Shown in pieces: positions 28,746 to 52,001 of a DNA stretch of 64,000 nucleotides; position 1 is the stretch's first letter; each line of letters starts with the position of its first letter. A program made the translations under genes and the position numbers. Under the pieces are notes generated by a model. The model ran no database searches and was not told where the DNA came from. It saw only the letters and a program-made list of their open reading frames with translations. The stretch comes from Candidatus Babelota bacterium (GTDB lineage: Bacteria > Babelota > Babeliae > Babelales > Vermiphilaceae). The stretch is taken from positions 12,081 to 76,080 of the forward strand of contig JBMOLF010000012.1 of NCBI GenBank assembly GCA_049325595.1, written 5' to 3'.

Positions 28746-29438
28746 ATGAAGTTTTGGCAACGCATTTATTTTACGATTCGTACTTTTTTTAAATTGCTTC
28801 ATGTTAATTTTCAAATGTTATGTGGGTCGTATCGCATATTTGCACTTCCAGGACCGATTGTAACTATTTTTGGTGGATCACGTTTTGGGCAAGACATTGT
28901 TTATGCAAAAAAAGCGCATGATCTTGCCCATCGATTTGCTGAAAGTGGTATATCAGTATTAACTGGCGGTGGCTCGGGCATTATGCAGGCGGCAAGCTGT
29001 GGTGCACGTATTCATCAATGTGAAAAAGGAAAAACATTAGGTATTGGGGTAACCACTTTGCATGAGCCAAAAAATGAATGTTTAAGTGATTATTTTCAAG
29101 TTGATTACTTTTATGCACGTAAATGGTTGCTCACTCAATACTCTAGCGCGTTTGTCGTATTTCCTGGGGGATTTGGCACAATAGATGAGCTTGGTGAAGT
29201 ACTTACTTTAATTCAAACGGGTACCTTAAAGCGCACACCAATCGTATTAATTGGACGAGAATATTGGCAACCTTTTATGAATTGGGTCATCAGTGAAGCA
29301 TTGCCGCATAAACTTATTGCGCCTGAAGATTTAGGATTATTTACTATAACCGATGATCTTACCGAGGCTTTTTGTTTGGTGGAAGACAAATGCAAAATTG
29401 AGCTTAATGGAATCATTAAAAAGAAGGACATCAGGTAA
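28746..29438 (+). CDS. LOG-family (TIGR00730) nucleotide phosphoribohydrolase
   Basis: VTIFGGSR, TGGGSGIM, RKWLL, FPGGFGTIDE. Confidence 0.92.
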   Translation: MKFWQRIYFTIRTFFKLLHVNFQMLCGSYRIFALPGPIVTIFGGSRFGQDIVYAKKAHDLAHRFAESGISVLTGGGSGIMQAASCGARIHQCEKGKTLGIGVTTLHEPKNECLSDYFQVDYFYARKWLLTQYSSAFVVFPGGFGTIDELGEVLTLIQTGTLKRTPIVLIGREYWQPFMNWVISEALPHKLIAPEDLGLFTITDDLTEAFCLVEDKCKIELNGIIKKKDIR

Positions 29439-30097
29439 TGGCGCGCTGGACTCGATCAGACTTAGTATTGTTTGGTGCTTATATCAAGGCTGGTTGGCAG
29501 GTGATGCGAGCAGCAATTCTTATGCGGGCTACGCTAAAAAAGAAGGTGGTTACTATTTTTGGCGGAGCTCAAGTAAAGGGTGATGATACTTATCATAGTC
29601 AAGCTTTTGAAATTGCAAAACAGTTGGCCGAACAGGAATATTCGATTTTGACTGGTGGCGGGCCAGGGGTGATGGAAGCAGCTAATTGCGGTGCTGACGC
29701 GGGCGAACGAAAAACAAAAAGCACTGCTAATTTGGGAATTGGCGTTGCAGGTGTTGATGAAGATTTTGAAAATAAATGCGGTAGCTTTATACGGGTAAAC
29801 CAATTTTTTGGCCGTAAATGGCTACTCATTCGGTATTCAGTTGCTGCTATAGTTTTTCCTGGTGGTATAGGAACCGCGGATGAGCTTTTTGAACTGCTCA
29901 ATGCACTCAAACACCACCAGATAAACCATATCCCCGTAATTTTAGTAGGTGCTGATTTTTGGCAACCATTGATCAATTGGTATAATAACTCCTTACAAAC
30001 TGGTTATATTGCAAAGGAGAATGCTCATCTGCTTCGAGTAGTCGATGATACTGCTGAAATACTAAAAATAATTACTCATGCTACGACCAAGCATTGA
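29438..30097 (+). CDS. LOG-family (TIGR00730) nucleotide phosphoribohydrolase, second copy
   Basis: VTIFGGA, TGGGPGVMEAAN, RKWLL, FPGGIGTADE; TAATG coupling with the upstream copy. Confidence 0.92.
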   Translation: MARWTRSDLVLFGAYIKAGWQVMRAAILMRATLKKKVVTIFGGAQVKGDDTYHSQAFEIAKQLAEQEYSILTGGGPGVMEAANCGADAGERKTKSTANLGIGVAGVDEDFENKCGSFIRVNQFFGRKWLLIRYSVAAIVFPGGIGTADELFELLNALKHHQINHIPVILVGADFWQPLINWYNNSLQTGYIAKENAHLLRVVDDTAEILKIITHATTKH

Positions 30098-30102
30098 TTA
30101 TG

Positions 30103-31440
30103 TTATTTTTTTACTGATCCAATTACATATCCAATTGCAGATACTATCAAACAAATAAGCTCACGAGGAAAAGCTGTTGGATAGATATTAAGAATAATAA
30201 AGGTGACAAATCCTGCTACAATACTTAGATAAGCAGCTTGCTTTTTAACGTCTTTTTTAAAGTAACAAACAAGTAAAGAAATTAATAAACAACTTACTGA
30301 AAGTTCGTAACTGTTAATAATCATACCAATAATATCTTGTGGTACTACATACGATGCACCAAGAGCAGCAAGGCCTATTAAAAGGGTAGTGATTTTGGAA
30401 GTAGCAAGTCCACTGAAACCTGGCAAAATAATATTAAAATCTTGGGTAATGTTTGCACTAATGCCATTGAGTAGCGCATCGGCAGTAGAAATAATGGCAG
30501 CTACAATTGCGCATAAGGCAAGCGCAACTATTGATCCAGAAATAGTATTATCAAGAAAAATAATAAGCGGATTACCATTGGCACTATCAAAACCTAGTAA
30601 TTTGGTTGCCATACCAAAATATACGGGAATGCAGGCAAATAAGATTAAAAAGATACCTGCATAGAGTGCCGAAACCGTAGCAACTTTTTGGCTGCGTGAC
30701 GCAAAAAAACGTTGTGCTAAATCTTGTTGAAAGAGTGAAAATAAAGCAGGCATTAAAATAATTGAGAGCAAGCTAGTTTGCGTTGGTTGATTGGCAAATA
30801 GTATTGGTTGGTTATTAATCATTTGAGTAAATAAGCCAGGATTTGCAAAAATACTGTAAACAAAAATACCACCAAAAATAACGGTGATTAGTGCCAATTG
30901 AATCATATCATTAATCGTAATTGCCCGTAGCCCCCCTATCATCGTGTAACCAATTACTGATAACCAAAAAGGAATAATCAGCCAGAACGTCTCAAACCCA
31001 AGACCCGCAATGAGTGATTTAGTGCCAATAACTTGCGCCACTAAAATGCCAAAAAAGGTGATAATAGAAAGTAACGATGCAATTTTTTTAAGTGCGGCTG
31101 ATTGATATTGGGTTTCAAATAGTTGTGCAGTTGTGGTCACTTTAAATTGCTGCAAGCGTGAGGCAATGCCGGTTGCCAAAAGTAAAAAGCCAATACTCAT
31201 CCCAAGTGTGTAAAAAATGCCATAAAATCCAATTGAGTAGGCAGTAGCAGCAGTACCCAATAATAAACCACCACCAAGTTGAGTTGCAATAAGGTTACAG
31301 GTAACTTGCATTACCCCGAGTGAGCGACCAGCAAGATAATAATCGGAAGCGGTTTTAACTTTGCGTGAAGCGCGAATACCTAAAATAAAATATAACGTAG
31401 CTAAAGCAGTAAAAAAGAAAAGAAATAAAGAAATATTCAT
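30103..31440 (-). CDS. Sodium:solute symporter (SSS) family transporter, predicted histidine-responsive
   Basis: DYYLAGRSL, ATQLGGG, YTMIGGLRA...D.IQ, QRFFAS, AAIISTADALL; about 13 TM segments. Confidence 0.93.
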   Translation of the reverse strand: MNISLFLFFFTALATLYFILGIRASRKVKTASDYYLAGRSLGVMQVTCNLIATQLGGGLLLGTAATAYSIGFYGIFYTLGMSIGFLLLATGIASRLQQFKVTTTAQLFETQYQSAALKKIASLLSIITFFGILVAQVIGTKSLIAGLGFETFWLIIPFWLSVIGYTMIGGLRAITINDMIQLALITVIFGGIFVYSIFANPGLFTQMINNQPILFANQPTQTSLLSIILMPALFSLFQQDLAQRFFASRSQKVATVSALYAGIFLILFACIPVYFGMATKLLGFDSANGNPLIIFLDNTISGSIVALALCAIVAAIISTADALLNGISANITQDFNIILPGFSGLATSKITTLLIGLAALGASYVVPQDIIGMIINSYELSVSCLLISLLVCYFKKDVKKQAAYLSIVAGFVTFIILNIYPTAFPRELICLIVSAIGYVIGSVKK

Positions 31441-31530
31441 GACATCCTCAAAAATTCATAACAAAAAAAGAGTACCAACAAGATAAAGGTAAAAAATAGG
31501 GAAGACAATTAGGAATGATGATGTCGATGA
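31437..31530 (-). promoter_or_regulatory. Anti-SD/SD pairing (translational attenuator) of the SSS gene
   Basis: + strand gacatcctca (31441-50) and tgatgatgtc (31516-25) form a 9/10 inverted repeat, extended by tcat (31437-40)/atga (31527-30). Confidence 0.65.
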
Positions 31531-31595
31531 TGAGCACCACTATATGCAAAGAAGTGGATTGAGGTGGAAGTGATAAAAATAGCATTGAGCTGCAT
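31509..31595 (-). CDS. His-rich leader peptide MQLNAIFITSTSIHFFAYSGAHHRHHHS (28 aa)
   Basis: GGAG RBS 5 nt before ATG 31595; CAT CAT CGA CAT CAT CAT run; TAA at 31511-31509; not in the ORF track. Confidence 0.8.
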   Translation of the reverse strand: MQLNAIFITSTSIHFFAYSGAHHRHHHS

Positions 31596-31634
31596 AAGTG
31601 CTCCGTTAATTAATAATAAACTCATCATGTAATG

Positions 31635-31663
31635 AGAATAGCCTAAAACATCTATGCAGACAA
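31635..31663 (-). promoter_or_regulatory. Putative sigma70 promoter for the leader and SSS gene
   Basis: TTGTCT-N17-TATTCT on the minus strand, 40 nt upstream of the leader ATG. Confidence 0.5.
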
Positions 31664-31676
31664 GTTAAAAAATGTT

Positions 31677-32318
31677 TTAAGCCGCTGAAGCTTGTTTAAG
31701 AGGTGCTTGTTGAAGTTGTTTTAATAAATAATCAAATGAATTTTTAAGCGTCATATGATGTTTTTTATTCTCTTCTAAAATTTTTTTTACTTCAGACTCA
31801 ACTTCTTTAACTGCAGCAAACCAGCTTGTTTTATTTGATTTCATTTTTTCTTCAGCATGATCGTAGCAATCTTGCAAGGCAAATTGAGCGGCGGTCTTTA
31901 TAGAGCTATACATTTTGCTGTTACCTTGGAGTAAGAGGACTATATTTTTTAATTTACTATCCAGAATATATTTATTTTGCGCAAGACCTTGAAGTTCAGC
32001 AATAACTGCTTGTTGAATGTAAATGGTATATTGCAAGTCTCTCATGCGAGACCGCAAGGTTTCAGCTTTTATTACTTTATCACAATATTTAGTGATTTCT
32101 GATATTGTTGAGAAAGTTCGTAAGGCATGTTGTTTGTTGATGAATGATGGAGTACCAACAGTAATGCCATTTTTTTTGTATACCGTATGTCGCACGATTG
32201 CAGAAATACGGTTATTAATTTGACTTAAAAAGACATTAATAGAATCATGCAATTTTTCCATGGCAATTATAGGAGCGCTTACTATAAAAATAAAAGCACA
32301 GAAGAAAAATTGCTTCAC
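31677..32318 (-). CDS. Exported hypothetical protein (helical)
   Basis: AAGGAG RBS before GTG 32318; signal peptide ...APIIA|MEK. Confidence 0.7.
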   Translation of the reverse strand: MKQFFFCAFIFIVSAPIIAMEKLHDSINVFLSQINNRISAIVRHTVYKKNGITVGTPSFINKQHALRTFSTISEITKYCDKVIKAETLRSRMRDLQYTIYIQQAVIAELQGLAQNKYILDSKLKNIVLLLQGNSKMYSSIKTAAQFALQDCYDHAEEKMKSNKTSWFAAVKEVESEVKKILEENKKHHMTLKNSFDYLLKQLQQAPLKQASAA

Positions 32319-32409: not shown

Positions 32410-32443
32410 AAAAGAGCCAATGATTATACCATTGGCTCTTTTT
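32410..32443 (-). terminator. Intrinsic terminator of the 32449..33237 gene
   Basis: aaaagagccaatg / cattggctctttt perfect stem with A/T tails. Confidence 0.8.
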
Positions 32444-33332: not shown

Positions 33333-35186
33333 TTAAATGGTTTCAACTTCTCGGGTTACAATAATAGTGTCTGAAATCATGCTCATCTGCCCATCACGAT
33401 AATTTGCTACCGCTTGTACTTGATTATCACCTTCAGCAAGTCCGGTTACGCCAGAAATTATCCATGCATCAAGTCCGGGGATGGTGGTAGTAGTGCCGAG
33501 CAGCACACCTGTTGGTCCGCTATAAAACAATGCTATGTTTGAAGGATTTGGTGCGGTACCCATAAATGCAGGTCCGGAAAGACCGGTGGTAAAAACGATA
33601 GCGCCATTTGTCGGATCGGTAATCGTAACTGGTGTTAAAGGATTGTTGTTAATATAGCGCGCTAATCCAAATAATGACCCGTTTGAAAGTAATGGTTTAG
33701 TTCCCCCGGCTACTACAATTCTGCTATCTGGTTGCAAGGCGACGGCATTAATGTGGTCGTTAGTGCCAAAAATAGGGGTAAGTACAAATCCGTCAATAAC
33801 TGCTGGATTACCGCCATCAAAATTAGGAGCAATAGGAAATCCTGGAGAAGTAGAAAAATTATTCACATCGATTTGGGGTAGGATATTAAAATCAGGAATT
33901 ATAAATGGATTGGTAAGATCTGGCACTGGTACAAAAACTGGATTTGACAACGTAGGTGGATTAAATGAAACAGTATCAAGCGTGCCGCTCGGGGTAAAAC
34001 GAGCTACTAAAAATTTTTGATCGACTCCTTCGATTCCATTTGATCCACATGCTAAAATTTTACCATCAGCCTGCAACGCCATGCTTGTTAAAATGTTCTC
34101 GGTATTAGTTAGGGCAATTACCAATGTCCCAACTTCGTTAAAAGTGGGATCGAGTGAACCATCATCTAAAAAACGTGCCAATGCAAAATCAGTACCAATG
34201 CCATTTTGATTGGTAGTGCCACCGGCAATAATAGCCCCATCAGGTTGAATGAGCAATGCACGTAAAATATTATTACTGCCGTCAAAAAATAGACTCAATG
34301 TTCCTGGTATGGTACCTAAGGGATTGAATGTGACATCAAGTGCGCCGGTTGTCGTGAGACGCGCTAAGGCAAAACCAGTAGTGCCGGTAGCATCAGTTGT
34401 TATGCCACCAACAACAATTCGATTTAATTGATCGAGTGCTACTGCAAATGCGCGGTCTTGAGAACCAGTGCTAAATGAAGGTAAAATAACTTGCCCTCCA
34501 GTACCAAATGTTGTATCAAGAGTCCCATCGGGATTATAACGAGCAAGGGCAAAAAAGGCTTGGCTCAATGCATCGATAGTTGTTCCGGCTAAAATAATAC
34601 GACCATCATCTTGCAAAACCATTGCACGTGCTATGTCGTTAGAATTAGTAGAAAATGAAGGAGTTATAACCAGTCCATCACTGCCAATAGTTGATACATA
34701 ACTGCCATCTTTTTGATAAAAAGCTAAGGCAAATTGATAATTTTGGTTAACATTGGTAAATCCACCGGCAACAATAATGGTATTAGGCTGTACATTTAAG
34801 CAGGTAGATTGGTCATCAGTCCCGCCAAAATTGGTAATAACTTGACCAGGAAATAAAAGAGTACCTGACTGAGAAAAAGTACGATCCAACACACCATTTG
34901 GTGAAAATCGTGCTAAAGCAAAAGAATTAGGACCGGTTTGGCTACTATTAAACGAACTACCTGATGTAAGAATGTTGCCATCGTTTTGTATGTATATGGC
35001 GTTTGCATTACTTGAGCTAAAAAAACCAAAGTCGGTTGTGATAGTACCAGCATTAAAATTAAATGCACCAAACTCAACATCAGGATCCCCATCTTCAGGG
35101 AAGGGAAGTAAATTCACATCACCGGTTGCCATGCCTTGTAATGACAGTGAATAAAAGCACAAAAAAAACATACATAATTTTTTCAT
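33333..35186 (-). CDS. Exported delta-60-repeat (TIGR02608-type) beta-propeller protein with Ig-like C-terminus
   Basis: About 7 repeats of LQxDGxIxxxG...FALARxxxxGxLDxTF; C-terminal VTITDPTNG...GTA...W...L.EG. Confidence 0.85.
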   Translation of the reverse strand: MKKLCMFFLCFYSLSLQGMATGDVNLLPFPEDGDPDVEFGAFNFNAGTITTDFGFFSSSNANAIYIQNDGNILTSGSSFNSSQTGPNSFALARFSPNGVLDRTFSQSGTLLFPGQVITNFGGTDDQSTCLNVQPNTIIVAGGFTNVNQNYQFALAFYQKDGSYVSTIGSDGLVITPSFSTNSNDIARAMVLQDDGRIILAGTTIDALSQAFFALARYNPDGTLDTTFGTGGQVILPSFSTGSQDRAFAVALDQLNRIVVGGITTDATGTTGFALARLTTTGALDVTFNPLGTIPGTLSLFFDGSNNILRALLIQPDGAIIAGGTTNQNGIGTDFALARFLDDGSLDPTFNEVGTLVIALTNTENILTSMALQADGKILACGSNGIEGVDQKFLVARFTPSGTLDTVSFNPPTLSNPVFVPVPDLTNPFIIPDFNILPQIDVNNFSTSPGFPIAPNFDGGNPAVIDGFVLTPIFGTNDHINAVALQPDSRIVVAGGTKPLLSNGSLFGLARYINNNPLTPVTITDPTNGAIVFTTGLSGPAFMGTAPNPSNIALFYSGPTGVLLGTTTTIPGLDAWIISGVTGLAEGDNQVQAVANYRDGQMSMISDTIIVTREVETI

Positions 35187-35238: not shown

Positions 35239-36621
35239 TTAGTTTCGTAATAATGCAGGACGTAATTTTTTAGAAAATTTTAAATCGCTGCAGACTGAAC
35301 CAATAGCATAGCCAATCACTGCACTTGCAAGATGTACAAATTCTTTTTCTGTATATAGATATATGCAATTACCTATAATAAAGCTAATAAGGCCTGCACC
35401 AATAGCGCACCATGCAGCAATTTTTTTTACTTCTTTTTTTACATAAGAAAAAAATAATGGAACAAGTAATATGCAGGTATACAATTCAAAGCTGACATTA
35501 AATATGCTGAGCAAATCAGTTGAGAAGAAATAGGAGACAATCATAATTAAAGAGCCATTTACCAGCGTAATAATTGATTTGCTATCAGGATGGGTAAATA
35601 AATTAAAGTCTTCTATCCAATAAGTGCTAATGGCTAAAAACAGATAATCAAAGGTGGTAATTATTGCAATAATAATACCACAAAGTATAAAAATAACGGT
35701 CAAGTCGTTAGTAAGGTATTGTATCACCGGAATAATTGGGCTAAGGCCTGATGGAATTTCTAAATTAAGTAGGTGTGCTTGATAACAAAAATAAAGTGGG
35801 ATTGATGAAAACAAAATCATAAAGATTCCGGCACCACCGCTTGAAATTATTTGTGTGAAGCGAGACTTTTTTGAAAATAATGGATGAGTAACATCTTGTT
35901 CGCTAATACAATAAATTATAATGTTTAAAAGACTCAATAACAAAGAAGCTAAATTAGTTTGAGAAAAAAAAGAAGTTAACTCCTGCTGTTTGAGAAAAAA
36001 AGTGATAGTGGTCCATGAAGGAGGTGCTTTAAAAAGACAATAGATAAAAGTTCCACCAAAAATGACACTAAAAAAACTTAATTGTACAAACGTTGATATG
36101 CCTAAGCGGGGCAAGCCGCCAATCGAGCAATAAAGAACAAGCAAAAACCACAGAATAATAAAAAAGAGTTCATTGGTGAATCCAAGTCCTTGCAAGAGAG
36201 ATTTTGTAGCAATTAATTCACCAACCAAAAAGGCATACATAATCATCGTAGAAAGACAGGAAGCTAATTTTTTAAGTGAAGGTGAATGATATTTTACCTC
36301 TAAAAATTGTGCGGAAGTGCTGCATTGTGCTGAACGTATACGTACTGCAAGGCCTCCTCCCAGTATTAAATAACCAATGCTAATGCCAATAATATAAAAA
36401 AGCCCGTAACAGGCTGTATAAAATGATTCATCTGAAGAGCTCAATAATAAGCTAGCACCTAACTCTGTTGCAATTAATGTTGCGGCAATTGATAAAAAAC
36501 CCAAATGAGGAGATTGCTGGGGTTTATATTCAGTTTTTCTTTTTTTAAACCAGTCAAGAATTGGCAGCAAAATAATAAAAAGCCCGATGTTTACAAAAAG
36601 CATAGGAAGGTTCATAACCAT
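35239..36621 (-). CDS. Divergent sodium:solute symporter (paralog of 30103..31440)
   Basis: LIATELGASLLL, YGLFY..G.SIG, L.KLAS.LS, IATKSLL.GLGF, SFELY, KK.VKK.AA all shared with the first SSS. Confidence 0.85.
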   Translation of the reverse strand: MVMNLPMLFVNIGLFIILLPILDWFKKRKTEYKPQQSPHLGFLSIAATLIATELGASLLLSSSDESFYTACYGLFYIIGISIGYLILGGGLAVRIRSAQCSTSAQFLEVKYHSPSLKKLASCLSTMIMYAFLVGELIATKSLLQGLGFTNELFFIILWFLLVLYCSIGGLPRLGISTFVQLSFFSVIFGGTFIYCLFKAPPSWTTITFFLKQQELTSFFSQTNLASLLLSLLNIIIYCISEQDVTHPLFSKKSRFTQIISSGGAGIFMILFSSIPLYFCYQAHLLNLEIPSGLSPIIPVIQYLTNDLTVIFILCGIIIAIITTFDYLFLAISTYWIEDFNLFTHPDSKSIITLVNGSLIMIVSYFFSTDLLSIFNVSFELYTCILLVPLFFSYVKKEVKKIAAWCAIGAGLISFIIGNCIYLYTEKEFVHLASAVIGYAIGSVCSDLKFSKKLRPALLRN

Positions 36622-36755
36622 AGTGCTCCTTGGAAAAGGGATTTATTGTGTGGAATAAAAAAAGAAAAATGAAAAATTAGAGATGATAAAAGAGAAAAAA
36701 CAAGTCGTTTAAAATGGCCCGAGGGAGGTTCCTCAATAAGTATTTCCTTGATCAT
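36612..36755 (-). CDS. Candidate upstream leader ORF (47 aa, Phe cluster IFHFSFF) overlapping the SSS start
   Basis: GGAG RBS before ATG 36755; TGA overlaps ATG 36615 (ATGA); not in the ORF track. Confidence 0.45.
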   Translation of the reverse strand: MIKEILIEEPPSGHFKRLVFSLLSSLIFHFSFFIPHNKSLFQGALWL

Positions 36756-51587: not shown

Positions 51588-52001
51588 TTAGCAACAACAA
51601 TTGTCCAACATATTTTTGCAGGATTTAACGCATTCGGTACAAAGATTAATGCATGAAATACATGCTTGAGCACAATCTTCTTTGCCGCCACGACAGCTAT
51701 CAATCATTTCTTGAATATGATCGATACAGGCATGACAAGTTTTAATGCAATGCTCAGCTGCTGCAATGCATTCAGGATCAGCACATTCTTGCAAGTGTGC
51801 GCTACAATGTTTAATGCATGCATGGCAGGCTTCAATTGCTTCATTTCCTGCAACAACAGTTAAAGCAAGTTGTTTGGCACATTTTGTTTCTTCACTCACT
51901 GGCGCACATAAAGGAATTAACTTTTGACATTCGTTAATACAATGTTCACATTTTTGAATACAGGTATTGCAAGCAGCTTTTAGTGATGAACTATTTTGCA
52001 T
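51588..52001 (-). CDS. Cys-rich four-helix-bundle copper-storage protein (Csp/DUF326-like)
   Basis: 25 Cys in 137 aa in CxxC/CxxxC helical spacing; AAGGAG RBS; no signal peptide. Confidence 0.8.
   Translation of the reverse strand: MQNSSSLKAACNTCIQKCEHCINECQKLIPLCAPVSEETKCAKQLALTVVAGNEAIEACHACIKHCSAHLQECADPECIAAAEHCIKTCHACIDHIQEMIDSCRGGKEDCAQACISCINLCTECVKSCKNMLDNCCC

Follow-up and report, generated by a model that had tools for sequence, protein, structure and literature searches.

A histidine-codon-rich leader ahead of a histidine-free sodium:solute symporter gene in a Dependentiae genome: a probable histidine sensor

Why should a short open reading frame (ORF) that ends in a cluster of histidine codons lie directly ahead of the gene of a transporter that contains no histidine at all? 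The question is raised by a 64,000-nucleotide stretch of DNA from a Candidatus Babelota bacterium (GenBank assembly GCA_049325595.1, contig JBMOLF010000012.1, positions 12,081 to 76,080 of the forward strand), here termed the window, in whose coordinates all positions are given. The features of the leader and the transporter are all on the minus strand: the ORF (31509..31595; 28 codons plus stop, MQLNAIFITSTSIHFFAYSGAHHRHHHS, as read from the sequence) is followed by a spacer of 68 nucleotides (nt) and then by the gene of a 445-residue sodium:solute symporter of family PF00474 (SSS; 30103..31440). The proposed sensing codons are the His block CAT CAT CGA CAT CAT CAT (HHRHHH, 31515..31532), with five CAT among six successive codons. 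In a preliminary description, made from the DNA letters alone, the ORF had been taken as a leader peptide that senses histidine and thereby unmasks the ribosome-binding site (RBS) of a histidine importer, and the promoter, GGAG site, ORF, CAT run and gap of that description are all found exactly where it had placed them. That a His-tRNA-sensing leader controls a probable histidine importer is well supported by the comparisons given below, and it is rather likely that the short ORF acts in full as a ribosome-mediated histidine sensor for the SSS gene. The parts of this scenario differ in strength, as sensing of tRNA-His with ribosome stalling as the signal is quite probable, histidine as the substrate of the transporter is slightly favoured, and RBS unmasking as the output in the lineage of the window is tentative, at somewhat less than an even balance.

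The simplest alternative is a chance ORF without function. It would agree with a predicted fold that is not unusually stable and with a promoter-like site that agrees with the consensus at no more than 8 of 12 positions, but it is opposed by the rarity of such an ORF in the genome, by its conservation throughout the phylum and by local purifying selection, and it is so improbable that it hardly needs to be considered. In the genome of the window (1,286,077 bases, 34.7% G+C, 95% complete), six-frame windows with at least five His codons in six occur only twice, the leader being one of them and the other lying inside a 137-codon frame. Of 261 genomes searched across the phylum, 108 contained an SSS homolog and the upstream regions of 90 loci were read, a leader being counted when an ORF of 6-90 codons had at least three His among its last 12 codons and ended at most 180 nt from the SSS start. 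Two of the 90 loci, with short flanks, were dropped, which left 88 scored; L010, with N in its upstream region, was not scored, and L082 passed the threshold with an ORF that resembles the 3' end of the gene before it, so that this locus was left out of the pairing, hairpin and leader-geometry analyses, although it is included in the comparison of His-free proteins. His-rich leaders precede the SSS orthologs in 28 of the 88 loci, as compared with 1/88 on the antisense strand, 3/86 and 1/86 downstream of the gene, and 2/88 further upstream, and this answers the expectation of the preliminary description that orthologs should carry such ORFs. In a quick tree of the SSS proteins the leader-bearing loci are spread across eight family codes, a scatter to be expected either of an ancient feature that was often lost or of repeated gains.

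The leaders of the orthologs differ in nearly everything except their histidines. They end for example in ...CPHHHHFLHPHSH, ...VHTHHHHIHHHCHHGKN, ...FHHAHHGHCTL, ...SRPHHHHSH or MSSILSISIFSASDHSHHC, and one metagenome ortholog has MFSS...SARHHHHHSL. In the 26 leaders that were looked at in detail, the distance from the last His to the stop codon is 0-6 codons (median 2), the stop codon lies 50-171 nt (median 94.5) ahead of the SSS start, and 100 of 114 His codons are CAT; an ATG preceded by a Shine-Dalgarno (SD) sequence is found in 20 of them, the ORF from that ATG having 16-44 codons, and the peptides of all His-rich short ORFs seen range from 19 to about 50 residues. A metagenome search for close orthologs gave five loci, of which L098 has a His leader and L099 has an adjacent upstream gene instead. 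In L017, L018, L019 and L027 the leader peptides start like their own transporter (e.g. MNSLLFLSIFSSS... and MNSLLFISMF...), which suggests either a duplication of the 5' end of the gene in that clade or a shared composition.

What is conserved in the leader can be seen at short distance. The complete same-genus genome of Candidatus Dependentiae bacterium Noda2021 (L002 / L006), the SSS of which is 84% identical, has a leader with the same promoter spacing, the SD sequence AACGGAGC and an ORF of 28 codons. A 32-nt stretch (TGGTGCTCATCATCGACATCATCATTCCTAAT) that covers GAHHRHHHS and the stop codon is identical in both genomes, the codons before it are largely different, and the N-terminal half of the peptide has diverged. 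In the SSS genes themselves 58 of 138 fourfold (42%) and 59 of 75 twofold (79%) synonymous sites are identical, and in the GAHHRHHHS block none of the 9 such sites has changed (P about 0.009). Still closer are contigs X2-X4 from three metagenome runs, which are 95-99% like the window and cover 31436..31720 wholly or partly. They have eight variable sites within the ORF, all of them in 31535..31583 and five altering an amino acid (codons read by hand), and two further ones, both in the promoter spacer. Across the 99 nt from 31436 to 31534, which comprise the His block, the spacer and the initiation region of the SSS gene, there is no substitution, the sole difference being one extra T in a run of seven U (X3). 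The chance that eight sites all fall within 61 of 160 positions is about 4e-4, which makes the significance look greater than it is, as the contigs are related. Of the peptide, only the His codons are kept, and judged by these comparisons selection is acting on the leader RNA rather than on the peptide. To the extent that sequences can tell, the His-rich leader is not a chance occurrence and is a conserved regulatory leader.

The same comparisons bear on another possibility, namely that the product of the ORF is itself functional, as a micropeptide rich in His (sometimes in His and Cys) that might for example bind metal or serve the transporter as an accessory subunit. Some SSS transporters are known to have small subunits, the leaders have hydrophobic N-terminal halves, and the ORF is followed in 9 of 26 loci by a terminator-like hairpin, such as would be expected behind an independent small gene. 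Also a Cys codon is present among the last seven codons of 7 of the 26 leaders (L011, L016, L017, L020, L041, L043, L049), often straight after the His run (CAU UGC), and in several of them the UGC opens a small hairpin. Yet nothing is conserved beyond the His codons, the lengths vary over the ranges given above, the N-terminal half takes five amino-acid changes among the 95-99% relatives, and a conserved peptide of the Hpn kind was not found. The neighbouring genes are LOG-like (PF03641) or unassigned, and none that handles metals is adjacent. As a micropeptide would moreover leave unexplained both the conservation of the synonymous sites and the loss of histidine from the transporter, this alternative is improbable.

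The transporter is the second reason to think of histidine. It matches PF00474 over residues 34-410 with 89.4 bits (gathering cut-off 22.8; E 2.9e-25), and it scores far under the NCBIfam equivalog cut-offs for PutP (TIGR02121, 57.6 versus 515.5 bits), PanF (TIGR02119, 53.9 versus 328 bits) and ActP (TIGR02711, 38.5 versus 1099 bits); its solved relatives are distant, the best being a choline transporter that is matched over residues 4-195 only. None of its 445 residues is a histidine, while the long ORFs of the genome have 2.4% His on average, and among the 478 ORFs of at least 300 residues only 5 are free of histidine. The other four of these start like secreted proteins. A protein that is needed under histidine shortage can be expected to avoid histidine, and the absence of this residue thus fits a sensor that responds to such a shortage. 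Among SSS proteins of at least 400 residues, 17 of 26 orthologs with a clear leader are His-free (mean His 0.6), as are 5 of 9 with a two-His leader (mean 1.8) and 9 of 54 without a leader (mean 3.9); it counts against the sensor that this association of leader and His-free transporter is not significant when kinship is controlled (p about 0.125), in an underpowered comparison of 11 independent pairs of which 3-4 go in the same direction, 0-1 in the opposite one and 6-8 are ties.

Histidine metabolism of the genome points the same way. Profile searches for HisG, HisD and IGPD gave no match in the genome of the window at its 95% completeness, while each of the three was found in 14 of 14 control genomes, and the PF00977 profile gave one marginal match of 48 residues. 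HisRS and tRNA-His(GUG) are encoded. As the three biosynthesis proteins are not found, and the synthetase and the tRNA are present, the cell probably relies on histidine import and would charge the imported histidine onto its tRNA. The probable auxotrophy assumed in the preliminary description agrees with this, and its view of the SSS as a histidine importer is likely, given the His-free transporter and the biosynthesis genes that were not found.

How could such a leader control the transporter? According to the proposed mechanism, leader and SSS gene would be cotranscribed from the promoter at 31663..31635. With ample charged tRNA-His, ribosomes would pass HHRHHH, reach the stop codon two codons further on and leave, and the vacated RNA of the His codons, the proposed anti-SD arm (31530..31516, within the His block), would pair with the SD sequence and the start codon of the SSS gene (31450..31437), so that little transporter would be made. 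With charged tRNA-His scarce, a ribosome would stall with its A site at a His codon and its footprint over the anti-SD arm; the initiation region would open and the transporter could be translated, even during histidine starvation, because it contains no histidine. It would then import histidine, or a compound that yields histidine. CAU is the complement of AUG, and a run of CAU could therefore itself act as an arm against the start codon and the SD sequence. The initiation region, which is the proposed SD arm (UGAGGAUGUC AUGA, 31437..31450), has the SD sequence GAGGA at 31449..31445 and the ATG at 31440..31438.

The pairing at the centre of this mechanism had been proposed in the preliminary description, and the helix indeed forms in the minimum free energy (MFE) fold of 31640..31420 (221 nt), where UCAU-C-GACAUC-A-UCA (31530..31516) pairs with UGAGGAUGUCAUGA (31450..31437). 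The duplex of His block and SSS initiation region has -13.9 kcal/mol (z -2.2 versus shuffled blocks), and only 2 of 25 foreign initiation regions match or exceed it. For the 26 leader loci, cognate pairings have a mean of -9.2 and non-cognate ones of -8.4, which is a weak advantage (permutation p 0.038), and strong cognate pairings are predicted also in several distant orthologs, among them L065 (-19.3), L066 (-15.0) and L030 (-12.6). In the two arms Noda2021 differs from the window at a single base, a C to T by which a G-C pair becomes a G-U pair and is retained, and the synonymous sites of both arms are conserved (P about 0.009).

Several other observations weigh against the sensor or against its proposed output. 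A clear leader is lacking in 60 of the 88 SSS orthologs, and as the SSS meets no equivalog model, no substrate is assigned to it by NCBIfam. The 221-nt fold has a z of -1.37, and 18 of 200 shuffles fold equally well. The duplex z lies below -1 in only 10 of the 26 leader loci, pairing is absent from several loci (e.g. L008, L039, L043, L049), and 9 of the 26 have terminator-like hairpins instead. The helix holds no compensatory change, either between the window and Noda2021 or among the close relatives X2-X4, its arms being otherwise invariant, and of the five metagenome loci mentioned above none is near enough for the helix to be aligned for covariation. Shuffling of the leader leaves the SD sequence and the AUG paired to an equal or greater degree in 116 of 120 cases (window) and 53 of 120 cases (Noda2021, L006), since in the model a purine-rich SD pairs with a pyrimidine-rich leader in any order. 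With a ribosome modelled over the His block, the SD is no more often unpaired than before in the window (probability 0.19) and less often in Noda2021 (L006; 0.08), as other pyrimidine tracts replace the His codons in the pairing; thermodynamic modelling of long-range pairs near a ribosome carries little weight in either direction. Of the one-hairpin anti-SD, the predicted helix and the conservation of its arms have thus stood, the constrained folding that had been suggested as a check speaks neither for nor against it, and the mechanism is plausible. Somewhat less likely is the wider idea that Dependentiae possess a minimal histidine "ribulon", a one-helix sensor in which the His codons double as the anti-SD arm and no antiterminator is needed, with the orphan SSS clade as a hitherto unrecognised family of histidine importers that would have lost their own histidines and could hence be made when histidine is lacking.

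The hairpins of the orthologs suggest that the same histidine sensor may act by transcription termination, either at the conserved GGUAYUC-U7 element, as a weak intrinsic terminator, or by means of Rho, which might load on the untranslated, G-poor RNA of leader and spacer unless ribosomes queue on the His codons. A terminator-like hairpin with a U tail at or after the end of the leader is found in 9 of the 26 leader-bearing orthologs, as compared with 2/26 and 0/25 in controls, and seven of these nine hairpins start 4-22 nt ahead of the stop codon of the leader, which suggests termination control in the hairpin-bearing lineages. In the pyrimidine-rich spacer of the window (31441..31508; U7 run at 31469..31463), TTGGTAYTCTTTTTTTGT is shared with Noda2021, while the remaining spacer has diverged, and Rho is encoded in the genome. 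However, between leader and SSS gene no hairpin passes either terminator criterion in the window or in Noda2021, and the best candidate of the window, ahead of the conserved U7 run, has a stem of 4 bp and a loop of 11 nt. The preliminary description had noticed no G+C-rich terminator here, and two hairpin scans agree. There is also no antiterminator alternative identified, the spacer RNA is U-rich rather than C-rich, and the use of Rho is purely inferred. For the lineage of the window, termination as the output is therefore unlikely, though of some weight.

The position of the His run recalls yet another type of leader. In all 26 leaders the run lies 0-6 codons ahead of the stop codon, which is the geometry of arrest-at-termination peptides, and a nascent His-rich peptide might arrest the ribosome in the manner of TnaC, which responds to tryptophan; the small molecule could here be free histidine, a metal or some other ligand. 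There is no conserved motif beyond His; an induction by excess histidine would also fail to explain why a His-free importer is found in a genome in which the biosynthesis genes were not found. Ligand-induced arrest is thus very improbable, and the sensing of charged tRNA-His by stalling, as set out above, is the preferred reading of the leader.

By which signals would the leader be expressed? The promoter-like TTGTCT-N17-TATTCT (31663..31635, with the -35 element at 31663..31658 and the -10 element at 31640..31635) lies below the threshold of the promoter scan and was hence not listed by it. Its assignment is supported by positional conservation, as Noda2021 has TTGTAA-N17-TATTCT in equal placement despite a different context of upstream genes. 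In place of the gene that precedes the leader in the window, Noda2021 has an ORF of 196 codons on the opposite strand, so that the leader travels with the SSS gene and appears to have its own promoter. Translation of the 28-codon form could start from the GGAG SD sequence (31601..31604), 5 nt ahead of the ATG at 31595, which is conserved in Noda2021. A further in-frame ATG (31626..31628) would give a leader of 39 codons, and as it is placed 6 nt after the -10 hexamer in the window and 7 nt after it in Noda2021, its use as a leaderless start is possible. The N-terminal extension from this ATG is conserved (MSLLLINGAL / MSLPLLNGAF).

Around the leader and its transporter there are some further features. 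The SSS gene is faced by two convergent LOG-like genes in tandem (PF03641, "possible lysine decarboxylase", SLOG cluster 4; 28746..29438 and 29438..30097, plus strand). A perfect palindrome of 33 nt (32410..32442), flanked by T runs on both sides like a bidirectional terminator, lies upstream of the 226-codon gene by which the leader is preceded. The gene at 33333..35186 (minus strand) encodes a protein of 617 residues with a signal-peptide-like start and a single histidine (0.2%). A paralogous SSS-like gene is located 4 kb away (35239..36621, minus strand); its product of 460 residues is 37% identical to the SSS and has six histidines by hand count, and its start is overlapped by a 47-codon ORF (MIKEILIEEPPSGHF..., 36612..36755, minus strand). 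Two SSS paralogs near each other are found in several related genomes too. In Noda2021 the match to the SSS is split between two frames (query residues 1-353 and 344-442) and the ORF of the ortholog stops at 359 codons, which would be due either to a frameshift in that genome or to a sequencing error. A search of the genome of the window for leaders rich in other amino acids gave only low-complexity runs of F/I/L/K/N and nothing convincing, and a Cys-rich short ORF at about position 51882 was rejected, as it lies out of frame within a Cys-rich coding region.

If the reading as a histidine sensor is true, no cis-regulatory sensor would have been described before it in Dependentiae (TM6), a phylum whose uncultivated, intracellular members are known from little else than their genomes, and the leader would make histidine a testable substrate prediction for an orphan branch of the SSS family. 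It would also be a clean case of a starvation-response protein that has been stripped of the very amino acid it supplies, and it suggests a way for bacteria that depend on a host and have very few regulators to tune what they scavenge from it.

Leader-peptide attenuation of his genes is classical. Like hisL (RF00514) and the His leaders of Firmicutes, the leader of the window is a short ORF with clustered His codons just upstream of a gene that is probably related to histidine, and stalling in it would report the charge of tRNA-His. Unlike hisL, it has no terminator/antiterminator pair and no match to RF00514 or another Rfam family (an Rfam cmscan of 31000..32200 with E up to 10 gave six chance-level matches, none of them RF00514), it would act on one transporter gene alone, HisG, HisD and IGPD are not found in the genome, and its host phylum is Dependentiae. 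In some attenuator variants an RBS-sequestering structure replaces the terminator, and His-rich leaders occur in Firmicutes (PMC9413887); the parts of that article consulted here name no SSS histidine carrier and do not mention symporters. Full-text literature searches found no such element for Dependentiae or before an SSS transporter. With PutP, PanF and ActP the transporter shares the PF00474 domain, but as described it scores far below the cut-offs of all three. A parallel in mechanism is given by the polycysteine leaderless short ORFs of mycobacteria, in which ribosomes stalled in the Cys run block a structure that sequesters the next RBS (Canestrari et al., bioRxiv 10.1101/834739). The leader of the window resembles them in its run of codons for a single amino acid, in the predicted RBS-sequestering structure and possibly in a leaderless start (with the -10 element 6-7 nt before the AUG), and it differs from them in that histidine takes the place of cysteine, that the target is a transporter and not a biosynthetic locus, and that the sensing codons themselves are the predicted anti-SD arm. 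The principle, leader-peptide sensing including RBS unmasking, is thus known already, and what is new is the phylum and the histidine-free orphan symporter as the target.

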